Notes: a model not told the origin generated them from the sequence alone. A DNA stretch of 64,000 bases from Pseudomonadota bacterium (GCA_039814625.1 JBCCAU010000008.1:64935-128934); one strand, 5' to 3'. Shown: positions 670-11,092, counted from the first letter of the stretch. Numbers and translations are program-made.

Positions 670-1382
670 TACCAGCCCGCCAGCGAGCCTTGGCCTGACA
701 ACTGCGGTTTGAGGTGTTGTGCCGCGAACGCGCCGACGATTAGCGAAATTCCAAGGTCCCCGTGACCGCCTCGCGACCGCTGCTGTGTGATCACCTGATT
801 GCCGGCGGCGGTCGTTGACGTTGTGAACGTCGCAAGGTCGGCTTCGATCTCGTCGCGCAAAGGCAGGTCCTGCGCGAACTGCAATTCCCCCGACGCAAAC
901 ATGACTGCCGTGTTCTCGATCATGAATGTCTTCCCTGCGTTGATGTACTTCCCATTCCGTCGCCACTCCTGACCGCTTGTCATCTGCACAGCAAAGTGCG
1001 GCACTCCTTGGTCGTCGAACATGTCCGACACAACGCGCCCGATACTCGTCCCATCAATGACAAGCTGCGACTTGCCCCCGAACGGCGGCGCATTCTTCAA
1101 ACGCACGAGGTGGTCGACGACCGCGACATAGGACACGCCTCGAAACCTGTCCGCATAGACGACGTTCAAACGACGCGGGCCAAGCTGCGCACCATCGGGT
1201 GTCATTTCAGGAATTTGCTTGTCTTCGAGAACACAGATGGCCGTGAAGTCGTTCGCCTGACCGAGATCCGCCGACACCCAGTAGCGTCGGTAGCCCGTCA
1301 GGCGCGCGACCGCAGGGTCCGCGTTCGTCTCGTTGACGATTGTTCCGTCTGGGCGTTCGACGAGGTTCAAAGTATCGGACAT
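666..1382 (-). CDS. Terminase large subunit, stand-alone C-terminal RNase H-like nuclease domain
   Basis: SADLGQANDFTAICVL, LVIDGTSIG..V.D and HGDL acidic motifs; own AGGAG RBS upstream of the ATG. Confidence 0.8.
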   Translation of the reverse strand: MSDTLNLVERPDGTIVNETNADPAVARLTGYRRYWVSADLGQANDFTAICVLEDKQIPEMTPDGAQLGPRRLNVVYADRFRGVSYVAVVDHLVRLKNAPPFGGKSQLVIDGTSIGRVVSDMFDDQGVPHFAVQMTSGQEWRRNGKYINAGKTFMIENTAVMFASGELQFAQDLPLRDEIEADLATFTTSTTAAGNQVITQQRSRGGHGDLGISLIVGAFAAQHLKPQLSGQGSLAGWY

Positions 1383-2146
1383 ATGGCCTTCTCCTGTGAC
1401 GTTGCCTGCTCGATCACGGACAGGTCAAAATATGAAACGCCATCCGCGAGAAATTCACACATCACCTCGGCACGGAATCGTGTCGCGGACAGTGTGCGGC
1501 GCAGACGGTCGACCTTCGCCTTGAGGCGTGGGATCGACGTGCCGGGCACCTTGATGCGATGCACGGCCTCCTGAGGCTCGAGGAACATTTGCGCGAACAG
1601 GTTACCCTTTCCTGCGGGCGTTGACGCGTAGAACGCCTGCCCGTTGTCTTTCAGCATGGGCAGGATCGACGAGATCACAGCGTCGTCATTCGGTAAGAAC
1701 GCGCACTCGTCCACGAGAAGCAGGTCTGCTGTGTAGCCACGGATCGTCGCGCCCGACGCCGGAACTGCGATGAACCTCGAGCCGTTATTTGCCTCGATCT
1801 CGGTCAGCGTGGACCGTTCAATAACTAAGTTGGTCGTTTTCAGGTAGCGTGCGACCTTCCGTGTGATCTCTCGCGTCTGGCGTTCGGCGGGTGCAAGGCA
1901 GATCGTTGTGCCCCCGCGCTCCATTTCGCGCACGCCTCGAGCCGCAAGGACACACGACTTGCCCGCCTGACGACACACGAGTAACGCGACGGTCTCGGCG
2001 TCCGACGAGAACGCCTCGGTCTGCCATGGGTCCGCAATTGCACCCGGGATTTCCGTTTGCAGGAAGCGGCCCATCTTCAAACCAAGGTCGTTGTCGCCTT
2101 CGATTAGGTCGAGGAAGTCGATAAATGCGGAGGCATCAAGCGGCAT
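1367..2146 (-). CDS. Terminase large subunit, stand-alone N-terminal ATPase domain
   Basis: Walker A CRQAGKS, Walker B LLLVDE, motif III ASTP, and C-terminal F.AE.MCEF linker. Confidence 0.88.
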   Translation of the reverse strand: MPLDASAFIDFLDLIEGDNDLGLKMGRFLQTEIPGAIADPWQTEAFSSDAETVALLVCRQAGKSCVLAARGVREMERGGTTICLAPAERQTREITRKVARYLKTTNLVIERSTLTEIEANNGSRFIAVPASGATIRGYTADLLLVDECAFLPNDDAVISSILPMLKDNGQAFYASTPAGKGNLFAQMFLEPQEAVHRIKVPGTSIPRLKAKVDRLRRTLSATRFRAEVMCEFLADGVSYFDLSVIEQATSQEKAICPIL

Positions 2147-2435
2147 CTTGGCTCGGGTCTATTAGGACCATGATCAGGCCGCGGTCGAAGTCATCTTCCA
2201 TGCGCACACCGTAACCTTTGTTGCGCAAGTCCCAGTACATGGTCGAGCGGATCGCGTCGTCTGACCAAGGCGTGCCTTTCTTGCTGACGCAAATGCGGCG
2301 CAGTTGTGCCATCGTCGCGCCTGTGCGCAACGCCTCGACGATCTTCTCCTGCATCGTGCCCGCTTTCGGCGGATACACTTTGAGGCCTGTCGGGTGGATG
2401 TGGATGCGTCCATGACGTGATTTAAATCCCGGCAC
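2136..2435 (-). CDS. Small winged-helix DNA-binding protein (DUF3489-like)
   Basis: GTMQEKIVEAL..GATMAQL....W....IRS pattern; overlaps both neighbours. Confidence 0.55.
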   Translation of the reverse strand: MPGFKSRHGRIHIHPTGLKVYPPKAGTMQEKIVEALRTGATMAQLRRICVSKKGTPWSDDAIRSTMYWDLRNKGYGVRMEDDFDRGLIMVLIDPSQDAA

Positions 2436-2994
2436 TGCTGTCTCCTTTCGTGACGGACAGCTTCTCCTCGTTCAGCAGGCGAAGCAGTGTTGGGCGAATT
2501 TCGGGATGGGCGTCCACGAGTTCGCGGAATATCTGTCGCACGCGCAGCCATTCGGGGGCCTCGGACAGTGCGACCGTGACTGTCAGATTCTGGGCCAATT
2601 TTCCCTGTAAGGAGGCGATATCCCTGAGGACCTTGCGCAGGCTCTCGAGGCCCGCCAATGCGAACGCGTCGTCTTCCGTCGACTCCGCCCGCGACACAAT
2701 CGCGTCCACGCGTTTCGCCAAGCTCTCGTAGGTGCGCGACACGTCCAGCCGCTCGTCGTTGAGCATCGACGTGATCTCGTTCGCACGCCGCACACGATCC
2801 TCGGCCAGAATTTCGTGCCGCCGCATGTCGTCGATCCGCAATTGGATGTGACGGTTCACGGACGACGGATGGCACCCGATGATTGCGGCAACCTCGGCTG
2901 TCGACTTGCGCTTCAGAACAAGGTCGGCTTCGAGTTCGGCTTTCTGTGGGTGTAGGTCGAATTTCGACTTCCCGCCTGAATGCTTGTTGCCCAT
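2422..2994 (-). CDS. Terminase small subunit-like protein
   Basis: N-terminal HTH (STAEVAAIIGCHPSSVNRHI), coiled-coil middle, C-terminal APEW...HPE; lies upstream of TerL. Confidence 0.65.
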   Translation of the reverse strand: MGNKHSGGKSKFDLHPQKAELEADLVLKRKSTAEVAAIIGCHPSSVNRHIQLRIDDMRRHEILAEDRVRRANEITSMLNDERLDVSRTYESLAKRVDAIVSRAESTEDDAFALAGLESLRKVLRDIASLQGKLAQNLTVTVALSEAPEWLRVRQIFRELVDAHPEIRPTLLRLLNEEKLSVTKGDSSAGI

Positions 2995-2995
2995 G

Positions 2996-3403
2996 TCACG
3001 CGACTCCCGCGAATTTCATGGGCAACGCGCATTCGTGGATGTCATACATCGGCAGCACGAAAGCCAGAGCATGAGAGAGGACCGTCCGTTGATACGAACC
3101 CGCACAGCAGACCCGATAGGCATCATTCGCAAGATGGCCCCGAACACCCGCAGCTACCAAATCCTCGCGAGCATCAATCGGCTCGCTACCCTTGAAAACG
3201 ATCAGGTCCAGAAAGGCCACATATGCCGCGATCCTCGCAACGCGCGGGACGTGGCTCAGCGCGTCCAAATTGAACGCCGTGAACGAGCCGCTGCCTGACG
3301 ACACCTCGCCGTGATCCGAGACGACGGGATCGCTCAGGTCGCCATAGTCGAGACCCGTTGCAAGATGCAGGACGGCTTTTTCTTCATTTGTCAGCTTGGG
3401 CAT
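2996..3403 (-). CDS. Hypothetical protein
   Basis: 135-aa ORF tightly packed between operon neighbours. Confidence 0.6.
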   Translation of the reverse strand: MPKLTNEEKAVLHLATGLDYGDLSDPVVSDHGEVSSGSGSFTAFNLDALSHVPRVARIAAYVAFLDLIVFKGSEPIDAREDLVAAGVRGHLANDAYRVCCAGSYQRTVLSHALAFVLPMYDIHECALPMKFAGVA

Positions 3404-6262: not shown

Positions 6263-6617
6263 ACAATTGGTCGCAAATTTCGACGGCGCTGTTGATTTGC
6301 TGTTCGTCGGGTATGGTTGCACAGATTATTAACGAACACCCCATTGCTGACGCAGAGGCTGCGTCTCTGATGCAATTTCACCGAACGTTGTCTACATATG
6401 TTGCGGTGGTATCGCCATCTGAAGGTTGCACTTCGCACTCTCCGACCCAGCTGCATCTGATTGATGATCAGCTGTTTTCTGTTCCAACTGATTGATAAGC
6501 AAGTGAATTGGACGGCTTTGCAATTGAAACGTTGCAATTTGCCCGTGTCTCTGACGGCAGCAAGGAGAGAAGTCTGGGGGAGATCACCAAGAGTGTGCGC
6601 GAATATACACATCCGTC

Positions 6618-6883
6618 TCAGACCTGACCAAGCCTTACCAAGGGGCTAACTCGCTAACCCGTTGTTCTTAAAATCGCTCTCAGGCTTCTCAGACTTCACA
6701 GACCTTAAATGTGATTTGTGTATATACCAGCCAGCGCACACGATCCACGACGCACGCAACCGCTCACGGATAAAACTGAACTCACCCCCACAAAGCCTGG
6801 TAGTCTGACCAAAATGAAAATCCCGCAACGCTTTCAAAACGTTACGGGATTCAGACTTCATGACGAAGCCTGAGTAAGCCTGA
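6618..6883. repeat. Iteron-like repeats (TCAGRCYT), putative replication origin
   Basis: Nine direct or inverted 8-mer copies immediately downstream of the primase-helicase gene. Confidence 0.65.
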
Positions 6884-6900
6884 GAGATTTGACCAAAGCC

Positions 6901-9209
6901 TTAGAACGCGTCCTCACGCGCCTTGTGTTCAAGAAACGCCTCCGCCGATCCCTCGCCCGTCTGTGAATATGAGAACGAACGCCACGCTTCCATCTCGGGA
7001 TACGTTTCGCCCGTCACTTTCGACACGATGCGCTGGAACGTCGGAAGGTCAGGCAGGCGCAAGCCGCCACGAAAGTCGTTTTTGACAGGCTGCATCACCA
7101 TCACGCCCTCTTGGCTCGCATAAGAATGCCAGCGATCAATAACGGTGCAGTATGTTTCTTTGACGCAGCCAAACTTGCGCACCATCTCGTTGCGCACGGT
7201 CTGGGAACTCTCGCGCCCGCCATGTTTGACATACTCGCGATGCAGCGACGCCGACGACACAGTACCGCGCCCGCGCAAGTCATCCGGCATACGCCTGTTT
7301 CTGCGATCTCGTTCATGAGTGCGAGTAAAGGGTCTGACGCGATCTTGTCTGACTTCTTCGCCTCTGTGACATAACCATAGCCGATCAAGCCACGGTCAAC
7401 CTCGTAGTCGAGCAGGTATTGCAAAACCAAGCCCGCGTTGTCGTCAACGAGGTCATAGTATGGCTGCCAAAACGCACGCGCCTCGCGACTGTTTGGATCG
7501 TGTTCGAACTTCGAGTTCATTTCGATCACCGTCCACCTTCGGTCGTCGTTGTCGATATGCACGGCTTGCGTTGCGTTGGTCGTCGCAATGACGCGATGCA
7601 CATTCTTGCCTGTGAATGATGCGAGATACTTCTGCTCATACGTCCAGACGTCCGACGTGACGAATGACTTCATAGTTGCCGCTTGTTGGCGTGATCCCGC
7701 AAACAGCGCCTCCTCGCACAGCACGAACGTTGAGCCGAACAGGTCACGATTGAAGCGGTCAAACATGCGAGTAGAACCGTGGATGGTCCGCGCGTGACGT
7801 TCACCGAGTAATTTGCGCATTGCACGTCCAAGGAACGTCTTGCCTCCGCCTTGTCCGCCACGCAGCGCGAGTGCTGATCCTGGATGTATCGACCACGGTC
7901 GTTGAATCGCGTCCGCGAGATACGTCATGACCCAGTGCGCAAGATCTTTGTCGCCACCACAGACAATGTTCTCGATATAGTCGATCCACAGTGACGGGTC
8001 GCCGCGCTTTGGCGTAACGGCCCATTCTTCGAACACATTGAACCCTGCACCTTCATAATCCGGCGACTCGATCACGATGCCTCGGTATTCGTTGCGGTCA
8101 ACGTCCATCATCCACAGCTTCGCCATAGGCACAGGGCCGTTCTTCGTCGGTACTGTGTGAGGTGCTGTCATGTCGAAGAACGAATTCTTGGGATAGCAGT
8201 CGCCATCCTCCTTGTTCAGAAACTCGACTTTTCCCTCGACAATCATCATAGCCCATTCGCGATTGAACTTCTCGACAATGCGATAGTGCAGCGGTGCGCG
8301 TGAGCCTTTTTCGAGACGGATCGTCGTCTTCCACATGGCTTCGATTTCTTGAAATGCCAGCGGGCCGTCAGCGAACGCCTCGTGAAACTTCACGCCCTCT
8401 TGGTTCAGTCGAAACAACTCGGCTTTGATGTCGCTATCTGTCCAGCCACGTGACTGCATTGACCGCGCAATGCGCATCAGCAAGTCGTTGCGTCCTGCGG
8501 GATCAACAGGCACCTTATAGCCTAGGTCAGAGTCGTCCATGACAGGATCGGCTTTCGCCATATCAGCGAGAAGCGTCGCGTCGATACGACACTTCTCGTC
8601 GATGAATCTCAGTACACCAAGCAAGTCAGCGTCGTCCGCATATGAGCCGCTGTTACTTTCGGAAATCACCCACGCAATCTGACACTGTTGGCCTCGCAGC
8701 GGCAGATTGACAGACGTTGGTTTGTCGTCAGGGCCTACAAGCACCTGCGACGCTTTTGGGAAAATCTCGATATGCTGCTGCCAATCCTTCGGCATGTTTC
8801 GGCGTTTCGATGCCAAGAAGTCGTGCATCAATTTTGCAGACACAGGCTCATCTGGAAAGACGACGACGTGTAGGCCGCGCGACTTCGTGCGAAATGCAGC
8901 AGATGGGCAGCGCATCCGCTGTTGTACCTGCAACACGTCATCCTCCAGCATGTCGTAGATGTCGAAGTCGAGAACGCCATAGGCGCACGTGCTGTCTGAC
9001 TTCACAGGTGCGATGCCGTAAGACGCCTGCCCAAGCAAATGCGCGTTCGCCATTTCGAGGGTCACAGGTGCGTCAATCAGCGTGACTTCAACTTCTGCCT
9101 TGCCTTTTTTGTCTCGACTACCTTTCGGCGTTAGCGAGATGTGTCGGTCCTGATTGCCGTCGAATAGTCGCAGGAATGTCTCTGCGGCTTGGATGTCATA
9201 ATCGTCCAT
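6901..9209 (-). CDS. Primase-polymerase / SF3-type helicase (AEP + PriCT + DUF5906-like), frameshifted near 7291
   Basis: VLDFD and S.GLH AEP motifs, GRND PriCT motif, Walker A GGQGGGKT, Walker B LCEE; natural C-terminus continues in the 6901-7290 frame. Confidence 0.82.
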
Positions 9210-9340
9210 TTCGTTTCCTTCTTCTTAGAAAACGCAGGAGTCACCTAATTTTGGCGGTCGTCGTTCGACTATCAATCGCTTATATGTATTTGCGACCGAC
9301 GTGTTGGTCAGTTGATGAAGTGATAGCCATGCGAACGACG

Positions 9341-9375
9341 CGGCGCGGGAGGTGACTCTCGCGCCGTTTTATTTT
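9341..9375 (+). terminator. Intrinsic-terminator-like hairpin antisense to the xis-primase transcript
   Basis: CGGCGCGGGAG-GTGA-CTCTCGCGCCG followed by TTTTATTTT on the + strand. Confidence 0.55.
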
Positions 9376-9599
9376 GCTGCAATCCGATTATCTTGGAGCC
9401 AGTCGATCAGGTCGGCTTTCAGATACCGAACGATCCGCGCTTCGGGCTGGCTATAAGCCGGGCCTGTTTTGCGCTTGCGATGCTGCAACAAGTAATCCTC
9501 GGACACGCCAAGGAATACAGAAGCCTGCTTCGTCGTCATGATCTCTGGGGTCTGCGCGTGTTCAATTGCCGAGCGCAGTTCGGCTATGAGGTCTGTCAT
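9369..9599 (-). CDS. Excisionase/AlpA-like HTH protein
   Basis: MTTKQASVFLGVS...L...R....GP.Y......VRY...DL..W HTH_17-type pattern; AAAGGAG RBS before ATG at 9599. Confidence 0.85.
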   Translation of the reverse strand: MTDLIAELRSAIEHAQTPEIMTTKQASVFLGVSEDYLLQHRKRKTGPAYSQPEARIVRYLKADLIDWLQDNRIAAK

Positions 9600-9758
9600 G
9601 ACCAATGCTCCTTTCAAAGCATTCGGTCAGAACTTCCAGAACATCTCCCTCCTTGGCTGCGCCAGACGATGTTCCTTGGCCACCGAGTTGGGGTGAACGC
9701 CTCAGTGGGGACCTGTTTAAAGCAAAAGCGCGCGGCGACACCGCACGCGCGCCGGACA

Positions 9759-10916
9759 TTACGCAGAAAAGATGCTTTCCGCAACGTCAAAAGAAGAAGT
9801 CGACTTAGAAACAATCTGTTGAGCGACTGCGTTCACGTCGTCGTGGGAGCCAGCCGACTTGATGTATCGGCTCACCGCACCCTTTGCGACGACCTTGTCG
9901 CCGCGCAAATGTTTGATGGTTATCTCAGACAAGCCGACTAGAGCCGCACCCGTGGAGAAGACAGATCGACCGTCTTTCGGGCGCAGCAAGTTCGGGTCAC
10001 CAAGTGGACGGGGCACAACCATCGGAGTGTCCCTTGTCATCGACGCGAACACCCAACGATCATGTATTCGGGGCAGCGATTTGAACGCTGCGACGGCAGG
10101 ATCAGAAAGCGGGAAGGTCCGCTTGAGGTCATTCTTGAGACGCGGGATAGTCAATTGCTTTGCGTCTAGGTCTAAGTGTTCCCATTCGATTTTGCGTAGG
10201 TGGCCGGGACGAATGCCTGTGAACACGACAGCTCCCCAGAAAGCACGCTGACGGCGATCCTTAACCTGCGTAACTAGGTCCATAACAGGCCAAGGTTTAT
10301 CGACGTCAAACAGGAGTTCGTCCTCTCTTTGGCCGAACCCTTGCACACCGTGCGTTGGGTCGTGTTCGAGATCGTTCTGCAACATTAGTTCGTTGGCGTA
10401 GATGGAAGACAGGATGCGGAGGAGTTTGGTTGCAGTTGTCGGCTTGTGGGCGAGTGAGCGAATGCGGTCGTTGACCATCGCCTTGCGAATTTTCAGGATC
10501 GACAAATCGAGCCAATCAGCCACGTGATTGTTAAGCGTGTTCTCGTAATCGTAGATCGTGTTCTGACGCTTGATCTTGGTGCGGGGATCAATCGGATTGC
10601 GCGTGTGGCGGTCGAACGCTTCGCGCAACGTGACCTGCTGTTTCGCCGTTGCCGTTAAGCGCCCTTCGTTCACGGCCTCATTCTGTTCACCGACTTCGCG
10701 ACCCGCAGCCAGATAATCGACGAGCGGCCACGTCCCAATCGTTCGCACCGTATTCTTGCCATCTTGGAATTTTCGGAAGCGCCATGTCTTCGTCTTCGCG
10801 CCCACTTCCATATACAGATTTGGAAAACGGGCATCGCGGTAGCGATCTGTTCCGCTGCCTGAATGTTTAAGCTTATCGAGTGTGCCTTTGGTGAATGTGA
10901 TCGTCTGCGTTGCCAT
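9759..10916 (-). CDS. int: Tyrosine recombinase/integrase with arm-binding N-terminal domain
   Basis: N-terminal arm-type domain, FTGIR box I, KDGR box II, C-terminal RY; adjacent to the att repeat. Confidence 0.9.
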   Translation of the reverse strand: MATQTITFTKGTLDKLKHSGSGTDRYRDARFPNLYMEVGAKTKTWRFRKFQDGKNTVRTIGTWPLVDYLAAGREVGEQNEAVNEGRLTATAKQQVTLREAFDRHTRNPIDPRTKIKRQNTIYDYENTLNNHVADWLDLSILKIRKAMVNDRIRSLAHKPTTATKLLRILSSIYANELMLQNDLEHDPTHGVQGFGQREDELLFDVDKPWPVMDLVTQVKDRRQRAFWGAVVFTGIRPGHLRKIEWEHLDLDAKQLTIPRLKNDLKRTFPLSDPAVAAFKSLPRIHDRWVFASMTRDTPMVVPRPLGDPNLLRPKDGRSVFSTGAALVGLSEITIKHLRGDKVVAKGAVSRYIKSAGSHDDVNAVAQQIVSKSTSSFDVAESIFSA

Positions 10917-11048
10917 GAGGTCGGGCTCCATTTTGCAATTGAATTTTGCAATTGCGTAGTCGCCAAAACCGTGTCCGATCAACCGGAAGTCATTGTTTTT
11001 AAGGTAAAAACTGTCAGATCCACCGTGAGCAACCGACTTCCATTGAAT

Positions 11049-11092
11049 TTGTAATCAGTAGGTCCGCGGTTCAAGTCCGTGTGGGGGCACCA
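11049..11092 (+). repeat. att site: duplicated 3' half of tRNA-Thr(UGU)
   Basis: TTGTAATCAGTAGGTCCGCGGTTCAAGTCCGTGTGGGGGCACCA contains anticodon loop, T-arm GGTTCAA and CCA, but has no intact 5' half. Confidence 0.85.

Follow-up and report, generated by a model that had tools for sequence, protein, structure and literature searches.

Results

The spacer between an HTH_17 gene and a primase-helicase gene in the window (the whole 64,000-nt stretch of DNA that was analysed) has an architecture that is conserved in related elements, and both of the mutually competing folds that it can adopt covary among these relatives. We lean, with modest confidence, towards reading this spacer as a countertranscript control of primase translation of the repABC/IncI kind, lying outside any Rfam family. 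An antisense RNA of about 80 nt is probably made from the plus strand, as judged from features of the DNA described below.

Gene order and island setting

Read on the minus strand of the window, a tyrosine integrase gene (int, 10982..9759) is followed by the HTH_17 gene (9369..9599), a 159-nt spacer (9368..9210) and the primase-helicase gene (7101..9209), with a terminator-like hairpin at 9748..9728 on the same strand. The HTH_17 gene encodes a 76-aa protein of the excisionase/AlpA type (Pfam PF12728, E = 2.7e-8), and its stop codon, TAA at 9371-9369, lies 4 nt ahead of H1, the first hairpin of the spacer. Homologues of this gene sit upstream of the primase gene in related loci too, and the protein may be either Xis or an AlpA-like regulator. 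The primase gene starts with AUG at 9209-9207 and encodes 702 aa comprising an AEP primase and a DUF5906/D5-type helicase (Pfam PF22548 and PF19263), with a match to TIGR01613, the P4-family primase C-terminal domain. This gene is frameshifted in the window: the 702-aa frame closes with an Arg/Cys/Ala-rich tail (about 7290-7101), and an overlapping minus-strand ORF, 7290..6901, has 48% identity to residues 648-750 of a 773-aa primase homologue. The frameshift could reflect a pseudogene, an assembly error or a programmed shift, and because of it the copy of the element in the window may be decaying.

The 3' half of a tRNA (…GGTTCAAGTCCGTGTGGGGGCACCA) adjoins the integrase gene at 11030-11092 on the plus strand; ARAGORN called no tRNA here. 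This fragment is probably an attachment-site copy that marks the island end, which would place the locus at the integrase end of a satellite-like island. Beyond the primase gene on its 3' side, the non-coding region 6616-6900 contains several direct and inverted words of the TCAGAC(C/T)T / AAGCCTGAG type, some of them 9 bp apart, and is a candidate iteron-like origin separate from the spacer. The gene order and size are those of a PICI-like satellite (int - alpA/HTH - primase - ori - packaging genes): int, HTH and primase genes are co-directional, iteron-like repeats lie 3' of the primase gene, and Terminase_6N is found downstream in relatives. We refer to the island as phage-satellite-like on the basis of this gene order and size.

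Inverted repeats and competing folds in the spacer

The initial annotation had described nested complementary pairs in this spacer, and an inverted-repeat search recovered all of them. The central repeat, 9259-9281 / 9318-9340 (23 nt, 74%), includes CGTCGTTCG/CGAACGACG and CTATCA/TGATAG; the outer pair extends to 9233-9246 / 9350-9363 (14 nt, 86%) and includes GAGTCACCT/AGGTGACTC; and a hairpin with 11-nt arms is formed by 9341-9351 / 9356-9366 (91%). The outer pair draws on nucleotides of the loop and inner stem of hairpin 9341-9366, and the two therefore compete, as had been proposed at the outset; their sites overlap, and both alternatives are conserved with covariation. Folding of both strands, compared with 200 shuffles, gave z = -4.64 for the minus strand, with 0 of 200 shuffles as good, and z = -2.18 for the plus strand, in keeping with the structured RNA that had been suggested. 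Comparison with relatives, given below, speaks more strongly than folding against a chance origin.

In the mRNA sense (minus strand), the central rod P2 (GCGUCGUUCG/CGAACGACG and CUAUCA/UGAUAG, 9259..9340) encloses two small hairpins and an apex. Outside the rod a long-range helix, P0/P1, pairs 9365..9350 with 9246..9231 and includes three G.U pairs. Its 5' strand (GGCGCG-A-GAGUCACCU, 9350..9365) is supplied by H1, namely by its 5' arm and loop, and the 3' strand of the helix (AGGUGACUC-C-UGCGUU, 9231..9246) carries an SD-like AGGUGA; within the helix, GAGUCACCU (9358-9350) pairs with AGGUGACUC (9246-9238), 2 nt ahead of the last hairpin, P5. P5 (9212..9234, minus strand) is an 8-bp hairpin with one U.G pair that ends 2 nt ahead of the AUG and holds the primase Shine-Dalgarno sequence, AAGGA (9220-9216), in its 3' arm. 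The final 4 nt of the P0/P1 3' strand double as the 5' arm of P5, and formation of P0/P1 takes these four nucleotides from it.

On the plus strand the mirror image of H1, designated H1' (9341..9366), is the predicted terminator stem-loop of the countertranscript. It has 11 pairs, one of them G.U, where H1 in the mRNA has an A.C mismatch (9359/9348), and the fold energy is -22.3 kcal/mol on the plus strand versus -16.9 on the minus strand. A U-tract, TTTTATTTT, follows at 9367..9375 (plus strand) and overlaps the HTH stop codon on the opposite strand, whereas the minus strand has no T-run after H1; the initial annotation was thus right to confine the U-tract to the plus strand. Scored as an intrinsic terminator, plus-strand region 9340-9375 has a 12-pair stem that includes 9 G-C pairs, a 4-nt loop and TTTATTTTGC as its tail.

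A cmscan of 8800-9800 against Rfam 15, on both strands and with E up to 10, returned only a chance match to C0465, inside the primase gene. The suggestion that the spacer might represent a new RNA family is consistent with this result, which leaves it outside the P4 CI, C4 and repABC ctRNA families. The best sigma-70-like match in the window spacer is on the sense strand (TTGATA-16-CAAAAT, 9248-9275, minus); a transcript from it would begin at the AGGUGAC segment, and the match is not conserved in relatives.

Related elements share the spacer layout

The window primase has 70 homologues in a large protein collection, and all of those with an organism name are from Rhodobacterales or Paracoccaceae. 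Loci were gathered from genomes, metagenomes and assemblies, and the HTH stop and primase start were set in 35 of them, 34 of which are non-identical. Loci L014, L016 and L018 come from isolates of Ruegeria atlantica, Lentibacter algarum or Oceaniglobus indicus. Many of the homologues lie on contigs of 10-15 kb that carry int, HTH, primase and Terminase_6N genes; L058, L059, L060, L061 and L065 are contigs of about 11-15 kb, the size expected of whole excised or packaged satellites. The HTH-to-primase spacer is 99-159 nt long in all 35 loci, and the same layout recurs in the 34 non-identical, differing sequences: the GC-rich hairpin H1, the P2 rod, an apex rich in A and T (ATAAC-N4-TTATA in the majority of elements), a distal segment that complements H1, and a last hairpin. 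The distal segment has two alternative partners, namely the H1 region, giving P0/P1 and a whole-spacer rod, or the start region, with H1 local. In most elements the rod reaches from the HTH stop to 8-22 nt ahead of the AUG.

The elements form two groups. Group B, with 11 lineages, comprises the window, L015, L021, L027/28/31, L033, L042, L058, L059 and L061, and group A has at least 19 members. The 5' arm of H1 begins 0 to +6 nt past the HTH stop in most of group B; in group A, H1 spans the stop, with its 5' arm at -9 to -14 in most members and at -18 in L046 and L063. The last hairpin of group B, which has a counterpart in all 11 lineages, holds the Shine-Dalgarno sequence in its 3' arm, and most lineages have it stopping 1-7 nt short of the AUG; in L015 the best-scoring hairpin lies further upstream, and a weaker start hairpin was defined by hand. 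The last hairpin of group A pairs a conserved GUCCAU with the AUGGAC start, with no Shine-Dalgarno sequence before the primase AUG, and one compensatory change in this hairpin reaches codon 2 in L020.

A covariance model of group A, R1, matched 3 of 401 family genomes, so the elements are rare per genus. Run on group B, R1 matched nothing at E <= 0.001: its strongest match there was L059 (E = 0.0054), and a limit of E = 1 still brought none for the window. A search of genome contigs by peptide patterns of the single protein found no close relatives, and a search of viral contigs found no relatives. We also considered whether the central segment of the window is inverted with respect to its relatives, as an invertible promoter would be, an idea prompted by a 9-mer, TCGCTTATA, that matches the opposite strand of relatives. 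This was ruled out: TCGCTTATA is nearly palindromic, and the closest relatives, L058 and L059, align in the same orientation.

Covariation of the closed and open folds

For group A, an alignment of 21 sequences (A5) was built with covariance model R1. The closed fold has 75.6% of its alignment cells paired and two-sided changes in 18 of 29 pairs, and none of 500 shuffles was as high; in P2, 10 of the 11 pairs show two-sided changes. For the open fold, P1 is 88% paired, again with 0/500 shuffles as high, and individual open-fold pairs change on both sides or through G.U, as in pair 28-178 (CG:9, UA:8, UG:1) and pair 25-181 (AU:11, GU:7). A C/U position in the H1 3' arm covaries with the distal G/A and not with its 5'-arm partner, an A that is fixed by a Gln codon. 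The layout first noticed in the window thus recurs in homologues with compensatory changes.

Group B sequences are too different for reliable column alignment, and we therefore compared cognate with permuted pairings. Across 10 group-B lineages, pairing of the H1 region with the distal segment was much more stable for cognate than for permuted partners (-27.6 vs -20.4 kcal/mol, p = 5e-5), and the cognate halves of P2 also paired better than permuted ones (p = 0.004).

The minimum-free-energy structure is the closed fold, ahead by 0-13 kcal/mol. The modelled accessibility of positions -13..+4 barely shifts when H1 is ribosome-blocked or the left half is blocked (means 0.44/0.44/0.43 and 0.41/0.45/0.37). 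Equilibrium folding gave a negative result in this respect: the models did not reproduce the proposed switch and kept the inhibitory hairpin in all modelled states.

Strand-specific features and terminator orientation

Neither strand is favoured by whole-spacer folding energy, and mismatches over the whole rod have no strand bias (124 vs 141; 14 vs 24 in a second count), so that only region-by-region tests were informative on strand. With strand-neutral scoring on the coding strand, the H1 stem has 20 A.C mismatches, equivalent to G.U on the antisense strand, 2 G.U and 4 other, a bias that rests on about ten independent lineages in counts that pool related elements regardless of shared ancestry. 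The H1 stem is, by this measure, G.U-tolerant on the antisense strand, and part of the bias could be selection weakening H1 in the mRNA. Of 33 elements, 27 have the more stable H1 on the antisense strand (p = 3e-4) and 30 the more stable last hairpin on the sense strand (p = 1.6e-5), related elements being counted singly in both tests. Two helices of group A show the opposite pattern to H1, with 13 G.U vs 5 A.C in P1 and 7 vs 0 in H3'.

We then scored a terminator signature, which required a stem of 7 or more pairs, 5 or more G-C pairs and 5 or more T in 8. The antisense strand shows this signature in 21 of the 34 spacers (28 if 4 T suffice) and the sense strand in 0 of 34, and terminator scans of the window and four relatives agree with the antisense orientation. 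These counts show H1 to have the design expected of an element of the antisense (window plus) strand, and the long-range helix and start-masking hairpin (P1/P5) that expected of the mRNA. The proposal that hairpin 9341-9366 would terminate an antisense transcript is supported by the H1 mismatches, its antisense stability and the one-sided terminator signature, and the broader proposal of RNA-level control of the primase draws comparative support from the SD/AUG-masking hairpin, which directly precedes the start codon in every element and is mostly the more stable on the sense strand.

A promoter-like block at the rod apex

On the plus strand, GG and a weak -35-like hexamer, TCGTCG (9256..9263), are followed 17 nt past the hexamer by a -10-like box, TATATG (9281..9286; TATAAR in most relatives), at the rod apex. 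No other unpaired motif of the spacer is as well conserved as this box. In an ungapped alignment of 30 sequences from both groups, anchored on the antisense TATAAR box, the two groups stay in register upstream of the box with zero gaps. Conserved positions in this register are the first T of the hexamer at -23 (30/30), GG at -25/-24 (27-28/30), CC at -36/-35 (27-30/30) and A at +12 (25/30), the last at the expected start distance. Downstream of the box the register is gone beyond +13, and the spacer varies in length only from the box to H1, a stretch of 39-81 nt in relatives and, from the coordinates, 82 nt in the window. A 17-nt gap between a TT-hexamer and TATAA, with a purine 7 nt past the box, is a need of a promoter and not of a helix arm, and the rigid GGT-N17-TATAAR spacing fits a putative countertranscript promoter.

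By E. coli rules this block is weak, with a -35 that is little more than TT and a -10 box that ends in R, not T. A consensus promoter scan of the window and four relatives reported no antisense promoter, and E. coli-type scans were set aside as a guide, having found no conserved strong promoter; the fixed GGT-N17-TATAAR block is seen only in the anchored register. In L020 the apex motif gives, on the sense strand (2097-2126, locus plus strand), a sigma-70-like TTGTCA-18-TATAGT with 10 of 12 matches, and the apex may hold promoters facing both ways in some elements.

We infer that a countertranscript of ~80 nt is produced from 9293..9375 on the plus strand, its 5' end being placed to within 3 nt. 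This segment folds at -35.8 kcal/mol (z = -3.2), with a small hairpin at its 5' end that a linker joins to the terminator H1'. The same box-to-terminator reasoning predicts countertranscripts of 58-85 nt in relatives.

Discussion

A model for control of primase translation

In the reading that we favour, two overlapping RNAs from the spacer would jointly set the amount of primase-helicase. One is the minus-strand leader of the HTH-primase transcript, which would adopt two mutually exclusive folds. The closed fold would consist of local H1 (9366..9341), P2 and P5 (9234..9212), burying AAGGA, or in group A the pairing of GUCCAU with the AUGGAC start. In the open fold, H1 would instead give its 5' arm and its loop to a pairing with 9246..9231 (P0/P1), making one long rod across the spacer, removing the 5' arm of P5 and freeing the start signal. 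By analogy with plasmid systems, it is this open fold that we infer to activate translation.

The other RNA would be the plus-strand countertranscript of ~80 nt, driven from the rod-apex promoter (TATATG at 9281-9286, 17 nt past GG-TCGTCG) and ending at H1' and its U-tract (9341-9375). It would be the complement of H1 and of the rod's left arm, and its terminator loop would bear the same AGGUGACUC as the distal segment of the mRNA. Bound to H1 and the left arm, it would block the open fold, leaving the right arm to form the start-masking hairpin, and primase translation would drop; the outcome would be negative feedback that scales with the copy number of the element. Ribosomes that end the HTH frame 4 nt before H1, or inside H1 in group A, would melt H1 transiently and may favour the open fold. 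The A.C mismatches of H1 in the mRNA would weaken the unavoidable mirror image of the terminator and so favour the rod, while the terminator itself retains G.U pairs.

A more elaborate version, in which the spacer is a three-input device of a sort undescribed for phage satellites, is put forward as a doubtful extension. Its inputs would be a hand-over of ribosomes along the rod, a block by the countertranscript, and immunity typing by the left half. The rod would set the HTH stop beside the primase start, which in group A is without a Shine-Dalgarno sequence, and the hand-over across more than 100 nt would amount to a structure-mediated, long-range form of termination-reinitiation. The countertranscript would block this hand-over in proportion to copy number, and the hypervariable left half (39-82 nt) would define RNA incompatibility or immunity groups among co-resident marine satellites. 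On this proposal the right half would be frozen because it doubles as the countertranscript promoter.

Alternative explanations

The main alternative to countertranscript control is a structure in the mRNA that acts purely in cis, with no regulatory antisense RNA, and we regard it as possible but rather unlikely. The rod might bring the HTH stop to the primase start and couple primase translation to that of the HTH gene, or it might be an RNase III processing site that separates two cistrons; the plus-strand terminator would then only shield the int and HTH genes from stray antisense transcription. Several features of the spacer suit this alternative. A ribosome that stops at the HTH stop could always reach H1, the rod covers the spacer from that stop almost to the AUG in most elements (to 8-22 nt before it), and P1 and the start hairpin carry G.U pairs of the sense strand. 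Coupled genes commonly have no Shine-Dalgarno sequence, and this is the state of the primase start in group A. What a cis structure leaves unexplained is the optimisation of H1 for the antisense strand, the presence of a U-tract after H1 on that strand only (21-28/34 elements), and the choice of a TATAAR box, rigidly spaced by 17 nt from GGT, as the best-conserved unpaired motif. A ribosome-like block of H1 also fails to open the start region in the equilibrium models. The palindrome might instead function as DNA, whether by binding the HTH protein or a host protein as an operator, by forming a cruciform, or by serving the primase-helicase as a replication origin; we consider this improbable. 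The spacer folds about as well on one strand as on the other, its whole-rod mismatches lack strand bias and are frequently transversions, its AT-rich apex between GC-rich inverted repeats resembles origin cores, and the apex motif is kept across divergent HTH and primase proteins. Protein sites, however, need no ~50 bp of continuous, freely covarying complementarity, and a DNA function does not account for end hairpins with opposite strand-specific G.U patterns or for a 3' hairpin that is tied to the Shine-Dalgarno sequence and AUG and covaries with codon 2 in L020. Moreover, the iteron-like array at 6616-6900, 3' of the primase gene, is already of the usual origin type of satellite-like islands.

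The remaining explanations concern what the plus strand might make. A short antisense RNA could be made and yet have no role at the primase, for example as a by-product of a promoter, or because it targets the HTH mRNA at its 3' end or, in trans, a transcript of a helper phage. The group A terminator does overlap the final HTH codons, and the RNA would lie across the left half of the spacer, where both sequence and length are hypervariable. Against this, the distal segment at the primase start co-evolves with the exact H1 sequence that the RNA would cover, which ties the antisense target to the primase leader, and we rate an RNA without a primase role as quite improbable. A 59-codon ORF is also present on the plus strand of the window (9176-9355), and the hairpin would be the terminator of the small protein that it encodes. 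This is scarcely credible and was rejected, since no antisense ORF is conserved across relatives: the longest ones, compared in 24 relatives, agree neither in frame nor in length (4-109 codons) nor in sequence.

Comparison with known systems

Countertranscript control as favoured here most resembles two kinds of plasmid system. In the repABC replicons of Alphaproteobacteria, a ctRNA gene lies in the repB-repC spacer, where a large stem-loop of the spacer mRNA leaves the SD free; pairing of the ctRNA with the spacer frees the right arm and forces an inhibitory hairpin (PMC3155836). The spacer described here is like that of the repABC ctRNA (RF00489, ctRNA_p42d; p42d and pTi) in having a predicted antisense gene that precedes a replication initiator, is read toward the upstream gene, ends in an intrinsic terminator predicted in silico (hairpin and U-tract, 9340-9375) and belongs to the same bacterial class. 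An alternation of the leader like that of repABC is suggested by the covariation of both folds, yet equilibrium models keep the inhibitory hairpin in every modelled state. It differs in having no match to the RF00489 covariance model, and its neighbours are a tyrosine integrase, HTH_17 and AEP primase-helicase gene rather than a repA-repB-repC operon. The regulated gene would be the AEP primase and SF3-type helicase of an integrative island and not repC, and the predicted ctRNA terminator overlaps the stop or last codons of the HTH gene. Unlike in repABC, the inhibitory hairpin masks the SD/AUG and is without a U-tract, so it would be translational and not an attenuator.

In the IncI and IncB plasmids, an antisense RNA competes with a long-range pairing that is needed for rep translation (PMC8053102), and that article, citing Asano and Mizobuchi 1998, relates that upstream translation is thought to open the structure. 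The Inc RNA/RNAI and repY-repZ pseudoknot of IncI-alpha, IncB, IncK and IncL/M have a counterpart here in an upstream hairpin loop that pairs ~100 nt downstream beside a structure masking the RBS, and in a predicted antisense RNA that is complementary to that hairpin and would rival the long-range pairing. This loop-to-distal pairing beside a masked RBS is the one found to co-evolve (p = 5e-5). The two differ in that no short leader-peptide ORF overlaps the primase start, the upstream 76-aa HTH ORF ending 159 nt away; in that pairing extends here to a whole-spacer rod rather than a pseudoknot of 4-8 bp; and in host and element type.

Other RNA brakes are more distant. P4 CI RNA and the P1/P7 C4 RNA (C4 RF01695, isrK RF01394) are alike in being placed before a satellite replication (alpha/primase) operon. 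The sense leader of P4 yields CI by processing, and this RNA exerts its effect by seqA/seqC pairing and premature termination, whereas the candidate RNA here would be a true countertranscript with its own terminator, and the spacer matches neither covariance model (RF01695, RF01394). CopA/CopT and tap of plasmid R1 share a countertranscript of ~90 nt with a terminator hairpin, a target in the rep leader, and a Rep translation that requires upstream translation; here there is no tap-like ORF, and the Rfam scan found no sequence or structural homology.

Phage satellites must silence their replication genes in the lysogen-like state and fire them fast on induction, and to our knowledge the brake on replication genes of Gram-negative PICI-type elements is poorly known. 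Should the favoured reading hold, the marine satellites of Rhodobacterales would include a family that places a plasmid-style countertranscript and leader switch before an AEP primase-helicase gene, and RNA copy-control logic would reach from plasmids to integrative satellites. The spacers would make up a new cis/antisense RNA family of at least 34 members, without an Rfam match and usable for annotation, and the hypervariable target half would be a candidate for incompatibility or immunity typing of co-resident elements. One segment of DNA would then serve as an arm of the mRNA rod, an antisense promoter and an antisense terminator, and in group A also as the last HTH codons. In L066 (genome G001), at 1246-3139, a group-A leader (R1, 103.6 bits) has a homologous HTH gene on one side and, on the other, a primase-like gene not retrieved by the window primase at E <= 1e-20, and the module of HTH gene plus leader thus appears to recombine with different replication genes.
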